Positions 2,340 to 34,627 of a DNA stretch of 64,000 bases are shown here, in pieces (the first letter of the stretch is position 1; each line of letters opens with the position of its first letter). The DNA lies in the NCBI GenBank assembly GCA_945861585.1, contig CAMAVC010000001.1, positions 5,947-69,946 on the forward strand, in the 5' to 3' direction. Below the pieces are notes generated by a model. It saw nothing but the letters and a program-made list of their open reading frames with translations. It was not told where the DNA came from and ran no database searches. Position numbers and translations under genes: made by a program. Origin of the DNA: Planctomicrobium piriforme. Lineage in GTDB: Bacteria; Planctomycetota; Planctomycetia; Pirellulales; UBA1268.

Positions 2340-4433
2340 CTACTCGGCTGTCCAGCGGCTTTCGTAGACGGTGTCGCGGCGCGGCATGATCACCGACCAG
2401 CCGATGAGTTGGCCGTAGGGGTGATCGATCGTGTATCGCGCTGTGAGCGGCTCGACGTCGGCCGGGTCGCCGCGGGGATAGCGGACGAGCTCATACCGCT
2501 GGTAGGGATGATCCTCCGGAAACAAGAGCCAGACCGTGACCAAGTCGGCATCGAACTGCATCACGAACGGCATCCGGCCCGGGGGCAGGGAAGAAAACCG
2601 CACGCCGCCGGTGATCTCGAGCGTGATCGGATCATCGAGCGGGGCCTGCGAAAGATCGCAGTGAAACTCGTAGAACACCGGCGACTCGCCCGGCTCCGCC
2701 GCCGTCACGCGCCGCACGGAGATCGGATACGGGCTCTTCGGCTGGCGGTAGTCGACGTCCTCGATGGCGAGCGCCGTGCGAAAGACCACGCCACGCTTCC
2801 GCCGCGCCGGATCCTTCACCCTGAGCACGACCCGGTCGCGAAAGTGCACGCGGCCCCCCGCATCGGGCCGCAGGCTGCCGGCCCAGGCGCTCCGCAGATC
2901 GTTGATCCGGCTGTAGGAGAGGATCTCGATGCCGGCGTAGTCGTCCGGCGTGGCCGCGGCCGCGGTGGTGACGTCGATTTTTCGCCAGCCGTTGAAGGGA
3001 TCGCTCTCGACCAGGTCGAGCACGATGCGGATGTCGGGATCGCCCTGGGCGATCGAATCGATCACGCTCGTGAGCATCTCGGCCCGCCGATGGAGCCGGT
3101 AGAACCGCACCGGCAGATACACGAAGAGCAGACAGGCGAGTGCCAGATAGAGATACGTGGGCCAGTCCCTCCAGTCGAGCAGCGTCGACCAGACCTTCCG
3201 CTGACTCGATCGCCGCACGCGGGCGGCGAGCAGCGCGCTCGAGTTCGTGGCCGCCGTCCGGGCCGTGCCGGCCATGTGCGTGGCCTCGGCGGAGGTCGTT
3301 CCGCGCGGAACGACGGAAGAGCGGCCCGGCAGCGGCTCCCATGGCGGCCCCTCGGCGACCGGCCTGAGCGCCTGGTCGCCGATCCGCCGATGGAGGCTTC
3401 TCGCCACCTCGTAGCCGTGGGCGACGAGTGCGTTGACTTCCAGGTCGCTGAAGCGGTCGAGATCGGTGCGGATACTCGACACCTCGGCCTGCACGACCGG
3501 GTGCAGGGCATGCGGGTCCTCGTGCGGGTCGACCACGTGCGTGACGGGCACAAAATGGAAGCCCTTACGGTTGCCGAAGTTCTCGCGCTCGAGCTGCCAC
3601 ACCCTGTCCCAAAGGATGTCGGACGCCCGGATCGACTGGGCCACGAATCCGAGCGGCGCGTTGCCGAGAATCTGGAACGGCTTCCCGGCGTCACTCACGA
3701 TCACGCGGTCGTACGTGCGGCCGCCATGCCGTGCGAGCCACGCGAACGCCCGCGTACCGAGGTTGTCGTAGACGCCGCCATCGGTGAACGACTCCGTCGG
3801 AAATTGGCCCTCGTGCACTCCGAGATCGGTGGCCGTGATCTCGACCGGCGGAAAGAACCCTGGAAACGCCGACGAGGCACTGACCACCTTCGCGATGCTC
3901 GCCGTTTGGCCGGCGACGTGTCGGAACGGATCCACTTCGCCCGCCTCGCGCTTTTGGATGTGGAGGCCGTCTCGGTTAAACACCGCCATCACGCCATCGC
4001 TGACGTTCGTCGAGAGCATGTGCAGGGCCGGCTGCTCGGGCAGTTCAAAGAGCCGCCGGTCACCGTAGAGGAACTGGCGATAGGCCCGCTCCAAGAGCGC
4101 ATTGGGTGCGAACTGCGGCGCGTGCCAGCCGGTGAGCTTGGCGGCCAGTCGCAGCGGAAAGAGCAGGGGCAGCCGGCGCACGATCCGGTTGCGGACGTCG
4201 TGCTGCACGAAGTGCACGATCTCCGCGGCCGCCTCGCCAAACGCCCGGTCATCGCCGGTGTAGCGGTCCCAGTTGAGGACGAGGTGGGCCCCCACGATGC
4301 TTCCGCCGGAGACGGCGGCGATGTCGGTGACGAGCGGCAGGGTGCCGTTGTCACGGAGGTAGCGGATCACGCCCAGGTGATAGAGCGTGGCTCGAAATCC
4401 TCCGCCTGAGAGGGCGAGTCCGATGGCGGCCAT
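2340..4433 (-). CDS. patatin-like phospholipase with a central TM helix and an uncharacterised C-terminal domain
   Basis: Track ORF 2340..4934 trimmed to ATG at 4433, which is preceded by AGGAGG. Patatin motifs are present: LSGGGFRA (oxyanion hole), AAVSGGS (nucleophile elbow) and FTDGGVYDNLG (catalytic Asp). A TM segment WPTYLYLALACLLFVYLPV follows, then about 250 aa with no motif I recognise. Confidence 0.8.
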   Translation of the reverse strand: MAAIGLALSGGGFRATLYHLGVIRYLRDNGTLPLVTDIAAVSGGSIVGAHLVLNWDRYTGDDRAFGEAAAEIVHFVQHDVRNRIVRRLPLLFPLRLAAKLTGWHAPQFAPNALLERAYRQFLYGDRRLFELPEQPALHMLSTNVSDGVMAVFNRDGLHIQKREAGEVDPFRHVAGQTASIAKVVSASSAFPGFFPPVEITATDLGVHEGQFPTESFTDGGVYDNLGTRAFAWLARHGGRTYDRVIVSDAGKPFQILGNAPLGFVAQSIRASDILWDRVWQLERENFGNRKGFHFVPVTHVVDPHEDPHALHPVVQAEVSSIRTDLDRFSDLEVNALVAHGYEVARSLHRRIGDQALRPVAEGPPWEPLPGRSSVVPRGTTSAEATHMAGTARTAATNSSALLAARVRRSSQRKVWSTLLDWRDWPTYLYLALACLLFVYLPVRFYRLHRRAEMLTSVIDSIAQGDPDIRIVLDLVESDPFNGWRKIDVTTAAAATPDDYAGIEILSYSRINDLRSAWAGSLRPDAGGRVHFRDRVVLRVKDPARRKRGVVFRTALAIEDVDYRQPKSPYPISVRRVTAAEPGESPVFYEFHCDLSQAPLDDPITLEITGGVRFSSLPPGRMPFVMQFDADLVTVWLLFPEDHPYQRYELVRYPRGDPADVEPLTARYTIDHPYGQLIGWSVIMPRRDTVYESRWTAE

Positions 4434-4559
4434 GGGGCGATGATTCCTCCTGCATCCCTGCGCGTGCGCTCCTACTGTCACCCAGGCTCGTCGGAGCTGG
4501 CAACTGCGTGCGTGCCGCTGGCGTAGGCGACGAACGCCGTCGGCAGTCGACGACGCCCA

Positions 4560-4573
4560 GGGGGGGGGGGGGG
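4560..4573. repeat. G14 homopolymer (C14 on the minus strand) in a divergent intergenic spacer
   Basis: Counted directly: g at 4560 plus 13 g at 4561-4573, followed by cgaaaaa. It lies between the patatin start (4433, -) and the kinase start (4627, +). Confidence 0.95.
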
Positions 4574-4626
4574 CGAAAAACCGCGGTTCATTGGAACCAG
4601 ACGGCTCCCCGGGCGACACTTCTGGC

Positions 4627-6033
4627 ATGTGCCCGCACGTGCGTCCCGACACACTCACCGCCCGGCTTGTCCTGCCCGTCGTCGGGCTCGTGCTCGCAGG
4701 CGTGCTCATCAACGTGGGGTTTGCCGCGTGGCTGGCGACGCGTCGTGCGACCACCGCGGCTCGCGAGCGGCAGGAGCGGGTGGCTGCCGCCCTCTCGGAG
4801 TCGCGTGTCGCCCTCTCTCCCGCCGTGCTCGACGCGCTGCACGCCCTCACCGGCAGCCACTTCCTCGTTTGGAATCCGACGTCGCGGCAGCCCGGTGCCG
4901 CATCGTTCCCCGCCGAGGAGCAGGCCGCGATCACGAACGAGATGCTCGCTGCCGCGATCGAGGCCGGCCGGATCGAGATCGCCGGCGTCCGCTATTCCAT
5001 CGGGGTCGCTCGGGCGCAAGGCGTCCGACCGGAGGGCGTGCTCGTGCTCACGCCGCAGAAGCCGACCCTCGCGGCGACCCTCGAGACCCTCTGGCCGGTG
5101 CTCGCGGTGGCGGCGGGAACGCTCGCGGTGTTCGTGCCGCTCGCGCTTCGCACCACGCGGTCGCTTGCGGGCAGGATCACATCGGTGGAACGACACGTCG
5201 ACCGGATCGCCGCCGGCGAGTTCGGCCAACAACTGGCCGACGCCGGTTCCCGGGACGAGGTCGATCGACTCGTCGCCGGCGTCAATCGGATGAGCACGAC
5301 GCTCGCGAGCCTGCGCACGTCGCTCGTCACAGGCGAGCGACAGCGGCTGCTCGGCCAGTTGGCCGCCGGCTTCGCCCACGAACTACGCAACGCCATCACG
5401 GGCGCCCGGCTCGCCATCGACGTGCACGCCCGCCGCTGCACCCGCTCGTCGGAGACGGCCGACGAGAGCCTCGCCGTCGCCACGCGGCAGTTGGCGATCG
5501 TCGAGGAGGAGGTCCGCGGGCTGCTCGCGCTTGGCAAGCCCACGGCGGCGGCCCGAGGGCCGGTGGCCGTCGACGACCTGCTCGCGGCGGTTCGTGATCT
5601 CACCGCTCCACGTCGCGACCATGCCGGCGTGCGGCTCGAATGCGAAGTCCCGACCGGCATCACACTCCTCGGTCGACCCGATTCGCTGCGGGCGGCGCTC
5701 GTCAACCTCGTGCTCAACGGAATCGAAGCCGCGGGACGCGGCGGAGTGGTGCGACTGACCGGCACGTCGGCCGACGGCCGGATCGATCTCGCCGTGGAGG
5801 ACACCGGCCCCGGTCCGCCGGCCGCGATCCGCGCCTCCCTCGGCGAACCCTTCGTGACGGGCAAGCCCGAGGGGATCGGCCTGGGGCTCGCGATCGCCAA
5901 GGCCGTGGCGGAGGATCACGGCGGCACGCTCGCCTGGGGCCGCAGTCACGACCGCACGCGGTTTGCGATCTCGCTGCCGGCGGAGACACTGAAAGGAACG
6001 TCCGCAGTGCATCCTTCGAGACCGTGCGCATGA
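4627..6033 (+). CDS. sensor histidine kinase (2 TM, HAMP, HisKA, HATPase_c)
   Basis: Contains H-box FAHELRNAITGA, N-box LVNLVLNGIEAA, G-boxes VEDTGPGP and GIGLGLAIAK, and a HAMP-like segment RTTRSLAGRITSVERHVDRIAAGEF. The track start at 4591 is a TTG; ATG at 4627 is preferred. The stop overlaps the next gene's start (ATGA). Confidence 0.85.
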   Translation: MCPHVRPDTLTARLVLPVVGLVLAGVLINVGFAAWLATRRATTAARERQERVAAALSESRVALSPAVLDALHALTGSHFLVWNPTSRQPGAASFPAEEQAAITNEMLAAAIEAGRIEIAGVRYSIGVARAQGVRPEGVLVLTPQKPTLAATLETLWPVLAVAAGTLAVFVPLALRTTRSLAGRITSVERHVDRIAAGEFGQQLADAGSRDEVDRLVAGVNRMSTTLASLRTSLVTGERQRLLGQLAAGFAHELRNAITGARLAIDVHARRCTRSSETADESLAVATRQLAIVEEEVRGLLALGKPTAAARGPVAVDDLLAAVRDLTAPRRDHAGVRLECEVPTGITLLGRPDSLRAALVNLVLNGIEAAGRGGVVRLTGTSADGRIDLAVEDTGPGPPAAIRASLGEPFVTGKPEGIGLGLAIAKAVAEDHGGTLAWGRSHDRTRFAISLPAETLKGTSAVHPSRPCA

Positions 6034-7424
6034 GCCGAATCCTTGTCGTCGACGACGAACCAGCCATCGGCTGGAGCCTGCGCGAGCGGCTCGCGGACGA
6101 CGGGCACGCCGTCGAGGTGGCGGCGTCGGCTGAGGCAGCCCTGGAGACATGCACCCGCTTCGCTCCAGACGCGATGCTGCTCGACGTCCGTCTGCCCGGC
6201 CGCGACGGCCTGACGGCCCTCGCCGACCTTCGGTCCCTCGCTCCGGCGGCGCGGATCGTCGTCATGACGGCATTCGGCGATCTCGAGACGGCCGTGCGGG
6301 CCATGAAGGCAGGAGCCTTTGACTATCTCGTGAAGCCCTTCGACCTCGAACGGGTGACGCAGGTCGTGTCGCGGGCGCTCGCCGAGGCCCCACGCGGAAT
6401 GCACGCCGACACGAGTCCTCCCCTGCCAGAGCCCGGTGTCCGCCTCATCGGCACATCGCCGCCGATGCAGGAGGTGTTCAAGCAGATCGCCCTCGTTGCC
6501 CCGACCGATCTGCCGGTGCTCATCACCGGCGCGACGGGCACCGGCAAGGATCTTGCCGCCCGCGCGATCCATGCACATGGGGCGCGGCATGAGCGGCCGT
6601 TTCTGGCGACGAGCCTGGCCGCCCTCGCCCCGAGCGTGATCGAAAGCGAGCTCTTCGGTCATATCCGTGGGGCCTTCACCGGCGCGACGAGCGACCGGCC
6701 GGGACTCTTCGAACTGGCCGACGGTGGCACGTTGTTCCTCGACGAGATCGGTGAAGCACCGCCCGACCTGCAGGTGAAGCTCCTGCGGGTGCTCGAAACC
6801 CGAGAGATCACTCCCGTCGGTGCGGCCCGGCCGCGCGCCATCGACGTGCGGGTGATCGCGGCGACCAACCGCGACCTCACTGCGGCGCTCGAGGCCGGTG
6901 CCTTTCGCGGCGATCTTTTTCATCGCCTCAATGTGTTCCCGATCTCGATGCCGCCGCTGGCCACCCGGCTGGAAGACCTGCCGGCGCTGGTGGCGACGTT
7001 CGTCCAGCGGATCTCTCCGCAGCGGCCAGCCGTCACGGAGGCGTTTCTCGCCGCCGTCCGTGCGCGGTCGTGGCCCGGCCACGTGCGCGAGCTCAAGCAT
7101 GCCGTCGAGTACGCCTGCGTGGTCGCCCGCGGGGGCGCCCTCCAGCCGGAGCACTTGCCTCCGTCGGCTCAAGGGGACGTCGTGCTCGACGATCTGTCAG
7201 GTCTCGGACACGACGCGGCCCTCACCCGGGCCGTGCAAGGCTGGGTGGCCGACCACTGGCCCGCCCCCGGTGTTGATGCCGGCACGCTCCATGCAGGGCT
7301 GGTCGGGCTGGTCGAGACGGCCCTGATCGAAGAAACGCTGGCCCGTGTGGGCGGCAACCGCACGGCGGCGGCCCGGCTGCTCGGCGTCGACCGGGCGACG
7401 CTGCGCGTCAAGCTCGAGCGGTGA
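6030..7424 (+). CDS. sigma-54-dependent response regulator (NtrC family enhancer-binding protein)
   Basis: Track ORF 5640..7424 trimmed to [11 protein letters not shown] at 6030. It has a receiver domain ([11 protein letters not shown]), an AAA+ domain with Walker [15 protein letters not shown] and ESELFGH motifs, and a C-terminal Fis-type [26 protein letters not shown]. Confidence 0.9.
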
Positions 7425-7535
7425 TCCGCCGCCGCTTTCCCGAGCGTGATTCCGCCCGTAGACTGATTGCCGGTGGAGCCCGACTCAACGTGGCTTCTGG
7501 CCCGATTCCTTTTCCCCGGACGACGGAGAGCCACG

Positions 7536-29800: not shown

Positions 29801-31348
29801 CTCACTGAAAAACTCGACGCCTGGCTGGCCAGCGTCGGCGCGCAGCTGCCGACGCCGAACCCCGCCCACGACCCGGCCCGTGACACGACGGCCCGCAGGC
29901 CAAAGCGGGGCCGGCACGACACTCAGCCCGCTGTGCAAAAAACGCCCAACGTCCTGTTCCTCATCGCCGACGATGCGTCGTGCCACTTCGGCTGCTACGG
30001 GTGCGGCTGGGCGCGCACGCCCGCGGTCGACCGGCTCGCCCGCGACGGGCTCGTGTTCGACAACGCCTACGTGCCGACGTCGAAGTGCGCACCCTGTCGG
30101 GCCGCGATCCTCACCGGCCGCAACCCCTGGCAGCTCGAGGCGGCGGCGAATCATTGGCCGACGTTCCCGCCGGAGTATCGCGCGTTCACCGAGGTGCTCG
30201 CGGCCACCGGCGTCGCCTGCGGCGGGGCCGGGAAGGTGTGGGGGCCCGGCGTGGCGCAGACGGCCGGCGGGGACAAGCGGACGTGGGGGCTGGCGACGGT
30301 GAGGCGCGGCAAGGGGAGCGACGCCGGCGCGGGGTTCCAGGCGTTTCTCGCCACCCGCAAGCCCGGGCAGCCGTTTTTCTATTGGTTTGGCAGCACGAAC
30401 CCGCATCGGAAATACGAGCCCGACGCCGGTTTGGCCGCCGGCAAGAAGCCCACCGACATCGACCGCGTGCCCGCCTGCTGGCCCGACACCGACATCGTGC
30501 GCCGCGACATGCTCGACTACGCCACCGAGATCGAGGCCTTCGACGCGGAAGTGGGATCGCTCCTCGCCGCGCTCGACGCCGCCGGCGAGGCGGAAAACAC
30601 GGTCGTGATCGTGACGAGCGACCATGGAATGCCGTTCCCACGGATCAAGGGGCACACCTTCGACCTCGCCCACCGCGTGCCGCTCGTGATGCGCTGGCCG
30701 GCGGGGATCGTGCATCCCGGCCGCCATGTCGAGGCGTTCGTGAGCGCGATCGACTTCGCTCCCACGATCCTCGACCTCGAGCGGGTCGATGGCGTGGCCG
30801 GCGGCATGCGGCCGATGATGGGCGCGAGCCTCGCCGATCTCCTCCGCGACGCGCCCGCGCACCCGCGCGACCGCGTCATTCTCGGCCGCGAGCGCAACGA
30901 CGTCCGCTGCCGGCCGGGCACCGAATCGGGCCTCGGCTACCCCGCGCGGGCGATCCGCCGCGGCAACCTGTTCTACGTCCACAACTTCGCCCCCGACCGC
31001 TGGCCCTGCGGCGACCCCGACCTCGGGCTCGCCGATACCGACGCCGGTCCGACGAAAACGCTCATCGAGGCCGTCGGAGAGGGCGATCACTTCTGGCAGC
31101 TCTGCTTCGGGAAACGGCCGGCCGACGAACTCTACGACCTCGCGACCGATCCCGACTGCGTGAAGAACCTCGCCGCCGACCCCGCGCGTTCCCGCGAGGT
31201 ACGCCGGCTCAAAGAAGAGCTCTTCGCCGAACTCACGCGGCAGGCAGACCCGCGGCTGCTCGGCCGCGGCGACGCGTTCGATCACTACCCGTCGCCCCAG
31301 CCCGTGCCCGGCGCGAACCCCGCCCCGGCTAGGCCAGCACCGCCTTGA
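26834..31348 (+). CDS. tri-domain fusion: PhoD-like metallophosphatase domain - sulfatase - sulfatase
   Basis: Trimmed to MDRFNVIVGLFASVVSACLTTAQA. The N-terminal domain has VAVMSCNSS, FFAGDQTYRH and IPDDHDVGHGNLWG. Sulfatase 1 has VIVVLVDDMGWRD and TVCSPTRAAMLMGQ. Sulfatase 2 has VLFLIADDASCH and SKCAPCRAAILTGR. Confidence 0.8.
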   Translation: MDRFNVIVGLFASVVSACLTTAQAGSITAAEIAPQPFGPAFPALDGWATGAWWKDSAATTAQPDVKGGRPFAVDVPRGDVIAFALYTVTVRPESRGTLKLSAQLFPLKPSEAREARLEIRRGDAWVEAARAQVHYPGWDVNFRVAGWDSSRDWPYRVRHGDEAIFEGLIRRDPADKPEITVAVMSCNSSRTTGARDELVTGLRKADPDLLFFAGDQTYRHTQHTVGWIEFGLQFRDVIRDRPTVTIPDDHDVGHGNLWGAGGKQATRKDGADGGYFYPADYVNMVQRQQTWHLPDPVDPAPVGQGIGVFFTRLVLGGLDCAILEDRKFKTGPLGAIPQMGPRPDHITDPTYDRASIDKPGLELLGPRQVAWLERWSRDWQGVRAKTALSATAFAGAVHLHGSPDNRLLADLDCNGWPQSGRNQALKLLKAAHASHLCGDQHLAVVMKHGIERHGDGPWSFTSPALVNTIYGRWWHPLDERPGANPVPGSPLPWTGDYEDGLGNTISIVAYANPEDVKDEKKRGDGYGIARFDFTKDTITFECWPRFPSVGADGSARQYPGWPVTVPLERPAPAEKPAAAVGASTAPAQPNVIVVLVDDMGWRDLSCQGSPYFETPHIDRLAASGMRFTHGYSACTVCSPTRAAMLMGQYPARLHITDWIPGHQRPHAKLSIPDWQKFLPLETVTVAERLQSAGYATASIGKWHLGGDAYFPEHQGFDRNIGGSDRGQPPSSFSPYKIPTLPDGPVGEYLTDREAAEAVSFIEAHRDRPFFLYLPHYAVHTPIQAKPAVKAKYAAKDAGGLAVNNAGYAAMVESVDDALGTILAALDRLGIRDRTAIVFTSDNGGLVSSTDNAPARAGKGSAYEGGVRVPFIVSWPGVTRPGTTSAEPVITPDIPATILDLTGAGPEPGQPLDGVSLAPALRGEPLGRDALYWHYPHYHPGGATPHSAVRAGDWRLVRFYEDGRRELYNLRADEGETTDLAAREPDRVTDLTEKLDAWLASVGAQLPTPNPAHDPARDTTARRPKRGRHDTQPAVQKTPNVLFLIADDASCHFGCYGCGWARTPAVDRLARDGLVFDNAYVPTSKCAPCRAAILTGRNPWQLEAAANHWPTFPPEYRAFTEVLAATGVACGGAGKVWGPGVAQTAGGDKRTWGLATVRRGKGSDAGAGFQAFLATRKPGQPFFYWFGSTNPHRKYEPDAGLAAGKKPTDIDRVPACWPDTDIVRRDMLDYATEIEAFDAEVGSLLAALDAAGEAENTVVIVTSDHGMPFPRIKGHTFDLAHRVPLVMRWPAGIVHPGRHVEAFVSAIDFAPTILDLERVDGVAGGMRPMMGASLADLLRDAPAHPRDRVILGRERNDVRCRPGTESGLGYPARAIRRGNLFYVHNFAPDRWPCGDPDLGLADTDAGPTKTLIEAVGEGDHFWQLCFGKRPADELYDLATDPDCVKNLAADPARSREVRRLKEELFAELTRQADPRLLGRGDAFDHYPSPQPVPGANPAPARPAPP

Positions 31349-32621
31349 TCGGCTTGCCGCCGCCCCCGATCTTGAATGGGCGGCCGTTGGGGGCCATGAA
31401 CTCCTTGTCGTGCGGCAGGCCGCAGGCCGCGGCCACCGTCGAGAGAAAGTCGGGCACGCTGACGGCGTCCTTGTCGGGCTTGTGGCCGCGTTCGTCGCTC
31501 GCGCCGAACACGGCCCCCCCCTTCACGCCGGCGCCGGCCAATGCGCAGGAGAACACGGCCGGATGGTGGTCGCGGCCTGCGTTCTCGTTGATCCGCGGCG
31601 TCCGGCCGAACTCCGTGGCGAGCACGACGAGCGTCGAAGCGAGCAGCCCACGCTCCTCGAGGTCGGCGATGAGCGCGCTCATGCCGGCGTCGAGGTTGCC
31701 CGCCGCCTCCGGCAGCTCCTCGAAGATCTCGCGGTGCATGTCCCACTTGCCATATTCGACCTCCACGCACCGCACCCCGGCCTCGACGAGCCGCCGGGCG
31801 AGCAGGCAGCCCTGGCCGAACGTCGAACTGCCGTAGCGCTCGCGCGTCTGCTCCGATTCCTTCGCGATGTCGAAGGCCTCAAGATCAACGCTGCCGAGCA
31901 GCCGCACGGCGTCCTTGTACATCTGGTTGTAGGCTTCGAGCTGCGGGCCGGCGTACCTCCGCTTGAAGTCGGCATCGATCTTGTCGGCAAGGGCGAGCCG
32001 GCGGTTAAAGTTCTTCTCCGTGAGATACGCGGGCCGCACGGTGTTCTCGAGCCCAAGCTCCGGGTCGGCCACCGGCACGGGCGTGACCGACGGATCGAGA
32101 AATCCCGCGCCGGGGTGCTCGTTGCCGTTGCCGACGAGCACGTAGCCGGGAAGTTCGCGGCTCGCCTTGCCCTGCACGTGGAGCGCCCAGGAGCCGAGCG
32201 ACGGGTGGCGGATGCTACCGAGCACGGGGTACGCCGTGCGCATCACGTACTGACCCTGCTGATGATCGCCCGTCTCGGTGGTCATGGACCGGATCACGGC
32301 CAGCCGGTCCGACTGCGCAGCGAGCCGCGGCAGATGCTCGCCGAACATCACGCCCGGCGTCTTCGTCTGGATGGGCTTCGTCTCCCCCTGCTCCTCGCGG
32401 CCCGGCTTGGGGTCGAACGTGTCGAGGTGGCTCATCGCGCCCCGCATCGAGAGGATGATCAGGTTCATCCCCGCTGTTTTCGATCCGCTCGCGGCCGCCG
32501 CCAGGCTGCTCCCCAGCCCGTCGAGCAACGTCACCCCCAGCGTGGTCCGGGCGAGGCGGCCGAACATGGCCCGCCGTGCGACCCGCTCGTCGAGCCAGTC
32601 GGTCGTGTTTCGCATTCGCAT
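31329..32621 (-). CDS. DUF1501 protein (sulfatase-like fold, Tat signal)
   Basis: Trimmed to MRMRNTTDWLDERVARRAMFGRLA, preceded by GGGAGG. Motifs: SHLDTFDPKP and NENAGRDHHP. Confidence 0.9.
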   Translation of the reverse strand: MRMRNTTDWLDERVARRAMFGRLARTTLGVTLLDGLGSSLAAAASGSKTAGMNLIILSMRGAMSHLDTFDPKPGREEQGETKPIQTKTPGVMFGEHLPRLAAQSDRLAVIRSMTTETGDHQQGQYVMRTAYPVLGSIRHPSLGSWALHVQGKASRELPGYVLVGNGNEHPGAGFLDPSVTPVPVADPELGLENTVRPAYLTEKNFNRRLALADKIDADFKRRYAGPQLEAYNQMYKDAVRLLGSVDLEAFDIAKESEQTRERYGSSTFGQGCLLARRLVEAGVRCVEVEYGKWDMHREIFEELPEAAGNLDAGMSALIADLEERGLLASTLVVLATEFGRTPRINENAGRDHHPAVFSCALAGAGVKGGAVFGASDERGHKPDKDAVSVPDFLSTVAAACGLPHDKEFMAPNGRPFKIGGGGKPIKAVLA

Positions 32622-32653
32622 GGCATGCCTCCCAATCGCGCTCACGTGCTTCG

Positions 32654-34627
32654 TCACTGGATGAACAGAAATTCCCGCGTGTTGAGGAGCGCCCAGATCA
32701 CGTTGCCGCATCCGGTCGCCCGATCCTCGGCCGACATGATCTCCTGCACGGCGAGCGCCCGCTCCTCGGCGCTCGGGCGGCGCGAGAGCACCGCCAGAAA
32801 GACGACGTCGATCGCCTCCCGGGGTGCGTGGCTCGTGACCTCGTCGTAGATCACGGAGCCCCGCTCGAGCATCGCATGCGTGATCGGGCCGTTGAACATC
32901 GCCAGGATCTGCGGGACCGTCGCCACGGTCCGCCCACCTTCGATCGTCTCCCGGTCGCTCTGGCCGAACTGTCGGAGAAAGTGCCCGAGCGGCAGCGGCG
33001 TGGGCAGTTCGCTCGCCCGCACGAGCTCCAGGCCGCGGTAGCCGCAGATCTCCATCATGCGCCGCTTGGCGGGCCCCTTGCCATATCGCGACGCGAAGGC
33101 CTCGAGCCCGCGATCAACGTCGGTGAGCGAGGCGGTGCGGAGGTCGAGGTCGAGGACGGCGGCGACCTCCTTCGTGGTGGGCCGCTCGACCGACCATGGA
33201 TTGCGGGCCACGAGCGTGAGAATGGAATCCCACAGTTGCTCGGAGGTCATCCGCGTGAGCGCGGGCCCGGTGAAGCGGAACGGTGCGGCCGACATGGCAT
33301 CGTGGAGCACGGCCCGGCGCTGATACGCCTCGGTTGAAACGACGAGCCGTACGAACTCCCGGAGATCGAACTCCAGCCGCAGCATCTCGTCGGTGAGATG
33401 CTCGAGCAACGCAGGGAAGCTCGCGGGATTGTCCTCCTTGAAATCATCGACCGGCTCGACGAGGCCGATACCCATCAGTTTTTTCCAGAGCCGATTGGCG
33501 ATCGTGCGGGCGAACTGCCGGTTGTCGCGCGACACGATCCAGGCGGCGAACTGCTCCCGCCCGTCGGCTTGCGTCGCGGTTTCGGGCACCTCGCCCCAGA
33601 GCACCTGCGGGCTCACGGCCGCCAGCGGCTTGGCGTCGTCATACTGATAGTCGTGGGGCAGGAGCAGTTTTTTGTCGGCGAAGGCCACGCTCGTGACGTT
33701 GGCCCGGAGATACTGGGCCACCGCCGCTTTGTTGCGCTGGCTGCGATCCCGGTTTGCCATCTGCAGATCGCGAGCGGCTCGGGCGAGCTCTCCGGCGCCC
33801 TGCATGGGCATCCGCTTCTGCTTTTTTCCCTGGCCGTTCCCGCCGGGCCGGGTCTGGATGCCCGCGGTGAACGCGGCCAGTTCGTAGAACTCGCGTTGCG
33901 TCCAGTGGTCGAAGGGGTGGTCGTGGCACTGCGCACAGCCGATCTGCGTGCCGAGGAACACCCGCACGGTGTTGTCCACGTACGGGAGCGGCATCCCCTC
34001 GTCGCGCAGCTGAAACCCGACGGCGGGGTTTTCCCAGAGCCGGCCGTTGGCGGTGAGCATCTCGCGGGCCCACGCGTCGTAAGGCTTGTTTGTGCGGATC
34101 GCCTCCTTCACGTAGTGCAAATACGGCTCGAAGACGAGATGCTTGTCGGGCCGCTCCTGCAGCCGGAGGATGTCGGCCCAATAGTTGTAGAAGTGGCTGA
34201 CGTAGTCGGGGCTCTCGAGCAGCGCGTCGACGAGATCGCCCCGCTTGTCGGCCGCCGCGGAGTCGAGGAATGCCACCACTTCGTCGTGGGTCGGAATCCT
34301 GCCCCCGAGCTCGAGATAGGCGCGCCGCACGAACGCCTCGTCGGCCAAGGGTGGGGACGGCGAGACACCGTGCTCCAGCCAGTGCCCGGCGAGCAGGCCG
34401 TCGATCCGGCTGGCAGCCTCCCGGATCTCCCCGCGTGTGCCCCGGTCGACAGGCACGACCTTCATGACCGACCGCGGCGGCGGCTGCGTCACCGCCTCCG
34501 GCAGCCGCATCATCGCCACGGCCCGCTTGGGACGTTCGCGCGTCTTGCCTTCCGCGCCGAGGGTTGCGGCGAGTCCGGCGAGCGCGACGAACGCCACTCC
34601 GACTCGAATCTGCCACGGACGCATCAT
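32654..34627 (-). CDS. DUF1549/DUF1553 protein (PSD1-type)
   Basis: Motifs: FVRRAYLELGGRIPT, FLGTQIGCAQCHDHPFD, NRLWKKLMGIGLVEPVDD. It sits directly upstream of DUF1501, the standard planctomycete pairing. Confidence 0.9.
   Translation of the reverse strand: MMRPWQIRVGVAFVALAGLAATLGAEGKTRERPKRAVAMMRLPEAVTQPPPRSVMKVVPVDRGTRGEIREAASRIDGLLAGHWLEHGVSPSPPLADEAFVRRAYLELGGRIPTHDEVVAFLDSAAADKRGDLVDALLESPDYVSHFYNYWADILRLQERPDKHLVFEPYLHYVKEAIRTNKPYDAWAREMLTANGRLWENPAVGFQLRDEGMPLPYVDNTVRVFLGTQIGCAQCHDHPFDHWTQREFYELAAFTAGIQTRPGGNGQGKKQKRMPMQGAGELARAARDLQMANRDRSQRNKAAVAQYLRANVTSVAFADKKLLLPHDYQYDDAKPLAAVSPQVLWGEVPETATQADGREQFAAWIVSRDNRQFARTIANRLWKKLMGIGLVEPVDDFKEDNPASFPALLEHLTDEMLRLEFDLREFVRLVVSTEAYQRRAVLHDAMSAAPFRFTGPALTRMTSEQLWDSILTLVARNPWSVERPTTKEVAAVLDLDLRTASLTDVDRGLEAFASRYGKGPAKRRMMEICGYRGLELVRASELPTPLPLGHFLRQFGQSDRETIEGGRTVATVPQILAMFNGPITHAMLERGSVIYDEVTSHAPREAIDVVFLAVLSRRPSAEERALAVQEIMSAEDRATGCGNVIWALLNTREFLFIQ

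Follow-up and report, generated by a model that had tools for sequence, protein, structure and literature searches.

The window, by which we mean the entire 64-kb stretch of DNA that was analysed, has a G+C content of 67.6% and contains a patatin-like phospholipase gene that is transcribed divergently from the genes of a two-component system. The phospholipase (PF01734, 697 aa) is encoded on the minus strand, at 2340 to 4433. The sensor histidine kinase (468 aa, plus strand, 4627 to 6033) consists of an N-terminal transmembrane segment followed by HAMP, HisKA and HATPase_c domains, and the next gene on the plus strand (6030 to 7424), whose start overlaps the kinase stop codon, encodes an NtrC-type response regulator with a receiver domain, a sigma-54 interaction AAA+ domain and a Fis-type HTH. 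These identities agree with those proposed in an initial annotation of this DNA. Full-length orthologues of the kinase occur across Planctomycetia. The C-terminal ~270 aa of the patatin-like protein have no Pfam match and are preceded by a hydrophobic segment; many Planctomycetia retain the full-length architecture of this protein, down to ~58% identity. Neither Rfam nor tRNA scans of the window yielded a match.

The spacer between the divergent genes (4434 to 4626) measures 193 nt and contains an uninterrupted run of 14 G at positions 4560 to 4573 (C14 on the minus strand), flanked by CCCA on its left and CGAAAAACC on its right. Its last G lies 54 nt upstream of the kinase ATG at 4627 and 18 nt upstream of a TTG at 4591; its first is 127 nt from the patatin ATG (4433, minus strand). 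The exact letters, the length of the spacer and all three distances were confirmed as initially annotated, as was the rank of the tract as the longest homopolymer in the window. No other homopolymer in the window exceeds 8, the runner-up being one C8, and an examination of the 64 kb by TRF disclosed no further notable simple repeat. The number of G runs of at least 14 expected in 64 kb is ~0.0007 in a first-order Markov model and ~0.01 in an independent-base model. In 490 kb from 80 related Planctomycetia genomes (GTDB species with orthologous kinases) the longest G/C run is 8 and occurs once. A 460-aa minus-strand ORF (31329 to 32711), which we take to be DUF1501-like, contains the C8 of the window (31514 to 31521; G8 on the coding strand). 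The C8 codes for Gly-Gly there and is a potential frameshift-prone site.

Length of the G tract in strains and sister lineages

The tract was compared in eleven sequences, namely the window and ten metagenome assemblies of the same species that are 99.4-99.98% identical. The assemblies were retrieved by searching for exact copies of the patatin and kinase proteins and of members of their clusters; the response-regulator protein, searched in the same way, gave no match. Judged by the names of homologues, the organism belongs to Planctomycetota, class Planctomycetia, and probably to Pirellulales; the names given to samples and isolates of the related assemblies point to freshwater lakes as the source habitat. 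Tract lengths were read from the consensus metagenome assemblies, and seven alleles were found among the 11 sequences. G14 is present in the window, in L001, which equals L014 (ENA ERZ27280231), and in L015 (Logan ERR3719141). G12 occurs in L003 (JGI 3300071646), G11 in L016 (ERZ18671093) and L111 (ERZ19025747), G10 in L110 (ERZ19025640), G9 in L109 (JGI 3300071636), and G8 in L113 (JGI 3300071641) and L114 (JGI 3300071649). The seventh allele, GGGAGGGGG (G3AG5), is interrupted and was found in L002, which equals L112 (JGI 3300071637). At least 8 G are thus kept in all eight haplotypes of the species, the interrupted one having 9 positions. The lengths are distributed evenly over the range 8 to 14, and no helical phase is favoured.

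In a 4.4-kb alignment of the 11 sequences, pairwise SNP differences ranged from 0 to 26 and the sole internal gap columns were 4560 to 4565. Pairwise alignments of 10.4 kb contained one gap each, again at the tract. Length changes stepwise, with small steps between close pairs: L110 and L111 are 8 SNPs and 1 G apart, the window and L003 9 SNPs and 2 G. Three assemblies that differ by 0-1 SNP all have G14 (3/3), but they are weak replicates because they possibly stem from the same sample. The tract in the window and those of the strains reach or exceed the length of uninterrupted run, about 8-9 bases, that characterizes slippage sites, and in these near-identical genomes the length differs while the flanks are devoid of indels. 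The initial annotation's suggestion of a site of slipped-strand mispairing is borne out by this pattern: 8 to 14 G in near-identical strains at the only indel site of the 4.4-10.4 kb alignments. Judged by these alignments, the tract appears to be a slippage hotspot, that is, a hypermutable mononucleotide repeat, and the length polymorphism is very probably real and biological.

Tract length was also compared in relatives, as the initial annotation had proposed, and G5 or G6 was found at the same position, invariant within each lineage. In a sister lineage represented by L023 and L104-L107, the run is G6 in 5/5 assemblies; this lineage shares the patatin-kinase junction, and its spacer is ~94% identical outside the tract. 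In the lineage L017-L022, whose kinase gene is 89% identical to that of the window at the nucleotide level, the run is G5 in 6/6 Logan sequencing-run assemblies. Since the sisters are fixed at G5 or G6, the long tract is most simply read as a lineage-specific expansion that is now hypermutable. Instability thus seems to be length-dependent, as replication slippage predicts. An ancestral run of 5-6 G upstream of the kinase/NtrC-type regulator operon would have expanded in the window species and passed the length at which replication slippage becomes frequent; gains and losses of G's would then have produced the present range of 8 to 14. When metagenome contigs were scanned with a gapped DNA pattern covering the surroundings of the tract, only three unrelated chance matches were returned.

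The putative kinase promoter and elements near the tract

Alignment of the 45 nt that precede the kinase ATG at 16 orthologous loci defined a bipartite module. It is composed of (T/G/A)TGGAAC (4591 to 4597), 16 nt, CGACACTT (4614 to 4621), 5 nt and the ATG at 4627, and its internal spacing is fixed at all 16 loci. Written as hexamers, it reads TTGGAA, an 18-nt spacer, GACACT, 6 nt and ATG. The -35-like element TTGGAA(C) contains an invariant TGG. The -10-like element GACACT (4615 to 4620, plus strand) is nearly invariant as GA(C/A)ACT, and its positions 2 (A) and 6 (T) are fully invariant; distant orthologues have TAGAAT, TAGACT or TAGAGT (TAGANT) 6-8 nt before the ATG. The kinase site is the only zero-mismatch occurrence of TGGAAC-N16-CGACAC in the window, and a scan of the window for this pattern gave 11 matches against 6.9 expected, hence no enrichment beyond the kinase site. 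A -10-like hexamer a few nt before the ATG is the usual layout of leaderless genes. Because the layout here is of this type, transcription is predicted to start at or within a few bases of A4627, and the module is probably the kinase promoter.

An ECF-type reading of the module (GGAAC-N16-CGAC) fits the same bases as the sigma-70-like reading, and the relative position of the tract would be the same either way. A strict sigma-70 scan found no promoter in the tract/kinase upstream region. A sigma-54 promoter was considered and rejected: TGGCAC-N5-TTGC does not occur near the locus, nor is it enriched in the window, and in two candidates noticed on manual reading, TGGAAC...GGCT and TGGCAA...TGCG, the distance between the two parts is one base less than strict -24/-12 spacing demands. 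The motif TAGANT/GANNNT is present 6-8 nt before the start of the kinase orthologues L049, L052, L054, L062, L070, L072, L079, L100 and L102 and also before several ORFs of the window (7473, 12822, 58639), which suggests that leaderless transcription may be common in the planctomycete clade to which the window belongs.

Relative to the inferred kinase start (A of the ATG at 4627), the tract extends from about -67 to -54, and 17 nt separate it from the -35-like hexamer. Just after it, at 4576 to 4580 (about -51 to -47), lies a run of five A's on the plus strand, the counterparts of which are AAATA in L017 and AATAA in L104; L027 has A6 at a similar position. This position falls in the zone of UP elements, and the A5 tract may be such an element. 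Between the A tract and the -35-like hexamer there is a perfect 10-bp palindrome, AACCGCGGTT (4579 to 4588), which L017 retains in part, as ACCACGGT; this palindrome may be an operator, one that tract length would not affect. On the other side of the G tract, a dyad CGTCG-N8-CGACG with an internal GTCGAC palindrome (4538 to 4555) is a candidate regulator-binding site, such that the tract is situated between this dyad and the -35-like element. The arms of the dyad are kept in L017 (CGTCGTCAGTTTACGACG), where the inner spacer has diverged. Conservation of the dyad extends to two diverged lineages, and it is absent from the more distant orthologues, whose DNA shows no conservation upstream of the -35-like element. 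The dyad may bind a regulator. A terminator-like hairpin on the minus strand (4599 to 4584) was discarded, as it has a weak stem of 5-6 bp, is not conserved in L017 and ends no gene.

The putative patatin promoter (4474 to 4503, minus strand) comprises a -35-like TTGCCA (4503 to 4498), an 18-nt spacer and a -10-like GACAGT (4479 to 4474), with an AGGAGG Shine-Dalgarno sequence further downstream. This block is conserved in L007, L017 and L104. The tract lies 57-99 bp from it, ~60 bp behind its -35 element and ~90-105 bp upstream of the inferred patatin transcription start. Because L007 keeps the patatin block but has no tract, the tract appears to be dispensable for patatin.

Gene callers place the kinase start differently, yielding proteins of 468, 479 or 505 aa (clusters P0246, P0125, P0128, P0132). 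With some tract alleles, GTG codons further upstream (4508, 4512) come into frame with the kinase by way of a poly-Gly stretch, and other called starts are an NTG inside the -35-like element; both kinds of extended start look like annotation artefacts. The practical lesson is that starts called around such a tract are inconsistent.

Possible effects of tract length on the kinase operon

The best explanation of these observations, to which we assign a probability of about one half, is a hypermutable tract outside the core promoter that would exert a graded upstream effect on the kinase operon. Since the core module and the A tract both lie downstream of the G tract, the -35/-10 geometry is not altered by tract length. 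Each G gained or lost would instead move all upstream DNA by 1 bp, and thereby by ~34 degrees, relative to the kinase core promoter. The elements displaced in this way would include the dyad and the divergent patatin promoter. The centre of the dyad (4546.5) would be at -71.5 from the inferred start with G5, at -72.5 with G6, at -74.5 with G8, at -77.5 with G11 and at -80.5 with G14. G14 would accordingly be almost one helical turn past the ancestral state and G9-G11 on the opposite face of the helix. A factor bound upstream, or the alpha subunit of RNA polymerase, could be realigned with the polymerase as the length changes, and if a regulator binds the dyad, the output would be graded and roughly periodic with tract length. 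The outcome would be a heritable and reversible change in the degree of transcription of the two-component operon but no on/off switch. That operon expression changes measurably with tract length is itself somewhat less likely than not.

A further step would be to regard the variability itself as selected, so that the tract forms a contingency locus, which is unlikely. In its specific form the proposal is somewhat more doubtful: a selected poly-G tract would stochastically reset a sigma-54-dependent two-component system, such that clonal cells differ in sensor level. Activity would then recur roughly once per helical turn: G5-6 and G14-16 would occupy the same face of the helix and G9-11 the opposite one. 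In organisms that depend on contingency loci, long repeats are usually numerous across the genome and enriched at surface or restriction-modification genes; in the 64 kb of the window, as distinct from the whole genome, there is one.

Nearly as likely as the graded upstream effect is a neutral microsatellite, in which chance expansion of the G5-6 run created a real slippage hotspot whose length has no effect and drifts. This would account for the location of the tract outside the conserved core promoter module, in a region that more distant orthologues do not conserve, and for L007, which possesses patatin and a promoter-like block but no tract at all. The even coverage of lengths from 8 to 14 without phase preference points in the same direction, and the interrupted allele G3AG5 is what would be expected of a decaying repeat. 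Arguing mildly against neutrality is the finding that runs of more than 8 are otherwise absent from ~554 kb of the clade, yet all eight haplotypes keep at least 8 G; the absence of other such runs suggests that long runs are normally removed. Moreover, the tract lies within ~20 bp of the promoter, between the conserved dyad and the A tract, and spacing changes at such positions often matter in other bacteria.

The remaining explanations have far less in their favour. Long G runs are error-prone in short-read data, and the evidence comes from metagenome assemblies throughout, so that a constant true length obscured by sequencing or assembly errors has to be considered. The initial annotation had called the tract assembly-prone, and one-base errors at 12-14 G are indeed possible, but a range of 8 to 14 far exceeds the usual one-base error, and different lengths track different SNP haplotypes. 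Three near-identical assemblies agree on G14, the G5/G6 tracts are reproducible in 11/11 assemblies, and one allele has an internal A, all of which makes a purely technical origin very improbable. Equally improbable is a classical on/off phase variation brought about by changes in -35/-10 spacing or by frameshifts of an N-terminally extended kinase. The length and instability of the tract match those of known switches, extended kinases have been called (a 505-aa cluster member and 479-aa homologues that begin at the NTG equivalent to 4591), and at the 16 loci the invariant TGG is preceded by T, G or A, never by C. However, all of the bipartite module (4591 to 4620), whose internal spacing does not vary, is downstream of the tract, which speaks against the change of promoter spacing initially envisaged. 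An effect through a UTR, the other route envisaged, does not fit either, as the arrangement at the kinase is of the leaderless type and the putative patatin promoter faces away from the tract; this promoter, 57-99 bp distant, is retained where the tract is absent. The TTG at 4591 had been regarded as an alternative start, a reading rejected here on three grounds. In L043 the -35- and -10-like elements are jointly offset by 1 nt with respect to the ATG, which would be a frameshift if the segment were coding and is incompatible with a coding sequence. The ACT of GACACT is invariant, which would be unexpected of a codon, the more so of one that ends in T in a GC-rich genome, and in distant orthologues (~63% identity) the stop codon of the upstream gene directly precedes the ATG. 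Codon-phase entropies of 0.86, 0.92 and 0.87 for the three phases favour neither reading. In translational phase variation the repeat resides inside the coding sequence; here it lies outside, and the start at 4627 is conserved across orthologues. The least probable explanation is a structural DNA element, a G-quadruplex or other non-B DNA, which the initial annotation had likewise raised. That the G's all lie on one strand and between divergent promoters would be compatible with it, but an intramolecular three-tetrad form from a single run needs at least 15 G, whereas the alleles mostly have 8-12 and at most 14. No further G runs are adjacent to the tract, and the sister lineages have only G5-6.

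Among known systems, the promoter-spacer repeats of Neisseria and Haemophilus (porA poly-G, opc poly-C, hif TA) are located between the -35 and -10 hexamers or overlap them. They resemble the tract described here in being simple repeats in promoter regions that are subject to slipped-strand mispairing and sometimes lie between divergent genes (hifA/hifB). They differ in position, because the tract here is neither between nor overlapping the -35/-10-like elements, both of which are downstream of it. If tract length has an effect, it would most likely be graded and comparable to that of the poly-C tract of Bordetella fim or of the espA tract of M. tuberculosis. Both belong, like nadA, to a class in which the repeat lies between an upstream regulator site and the binding site of RNA polymerase; the tract here would occupy such a position if a regulator binds the dyad. 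In M. tuberculosis, a homopolymer lying ~48 bp upstream of an espA transcription start acquires indels that lower expression by ~40% (PMC10334774). Like this A7 tract, the G tract is a homopolymer a few tens of bp upstream of the start, outside the core promoter, in a high-GC organism, but it is longer than the M. tuberculosis tracts, which are short (~7-10 bases). The recurrent changes of the latter were established from a phylogeny of 31,428 isolates and validated experimentally (PMC10334774), in contrast to the 11 metagenome-derived sequences available here.

In B. pertussis, the length of the fim3 poly-C tract sets the alignment between BvgA and RNA polymerase, and 11-16 C are found within single cultures (PMC10172299). 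The similarities of the present tract to fim2/fim3 include a G:C homopolymer of similar length (11-16 in fim, 8-14 here) in the promoter region of a high-GC organism, single-base slippage and, as proposed here, alignment of an upstream-bound regulator with RNA polymerase by tract length. The fim tract is located between the BvgA site and the -10 element, where one base decides between on and off, whereas the tract here is upstream of the -35-like element. In fim the regulator is BvgA, and here it would act at a candidate dyad known from sequence. Mixed lengths of fim occur within one culture, and those of the present tract are known between assemblies. Finally, fim controls a surface antigen of Bordetella; here the downstream genes specify a signalling system, and the host is a free-living freshwater planctomycete.

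To our knowledge, work on phase variation by repeats has been confined almost entirely to host-adapted pathogens. A full-text literature search for planctomycete phase variation yielded no relevant paper for the phylum, and a search for planctomycete promoter maps found nothing relevant. The tract is a clean natural case in an uncultured environmental bacterium, stable at G5-6 in the sisters and variable from 8 to 14 in the window species, and it illustrates that metagenome assemblies can uncover hypermutable loci without cultures. Should the operon be tuned by tract length, the known range of mutational bet-hedging would come to include free-living Planctomycetota and regulatory genes. If the variability proved to be selected, Planctomycetota would have their first reported repeat-based bet-hedging switch, an unusual one in that it would act on a signalling module in place of a surface structure.

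History of the spacer and its neighbourhood

In most relatives (L017, L025-L029, L035) the kinase gene is divergent from a P-type cation ATPase gene. The gene order in L017 (173 to 3000) is patatin, ATPase (2.6 kb) and kinase. Window positions 4434 to ~4518 align to the patatin side of the L017 sequence and positions ~4527 to 4626 to the kinase side. Since the two halves of the spacer match either side of the L017 arrangement, the ATPase gene seems to have been cleanly deleted from the window lineage, with the junction at approximately 4519 to 4527 according to the L017 alignment. The G tract lies in the kinase-proximal part of the spacer and travels with the kinase. Because most relatives have the kinase divergent from the ATPase, the latter may have been the ancestral target of the two-component system.

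The kinase gene appears to have a mosaic ancestry. Compared with L104/L023, the patatin gene of the window is 93.7% identical and the spacer ~94% outside the tract, but the kinase gene only 81%; compared with L017, the kinase gene is 89% identical. The similarity to L104 drops right at the kinase start codon, which suggests an allele replacement by recombination.

A different rearrangement is found in L007 (ENA ERZ28594647), in which window positions 4508-7430, comprising the tract, the kinase and the regulator, are replaced by 1.25 kb that encode an N_methyl/SBP_bac_10 (DUF1559-type) protein. The boundaries of the replacement are sharp (4507/4508 and 7430/7431). The L007 flanks are ~92.7% identical to the window, and the patatin gene is 93% identical at the nucleotide level. 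Downstream of patatin, L007 contains a HicB/HicA toxin-antitoxin pair and a DUF2442 gene (5714 to 6154) where the window has an aspartyl-protease-like gene, such that the neighbourhood on this side appears to be variable as well.
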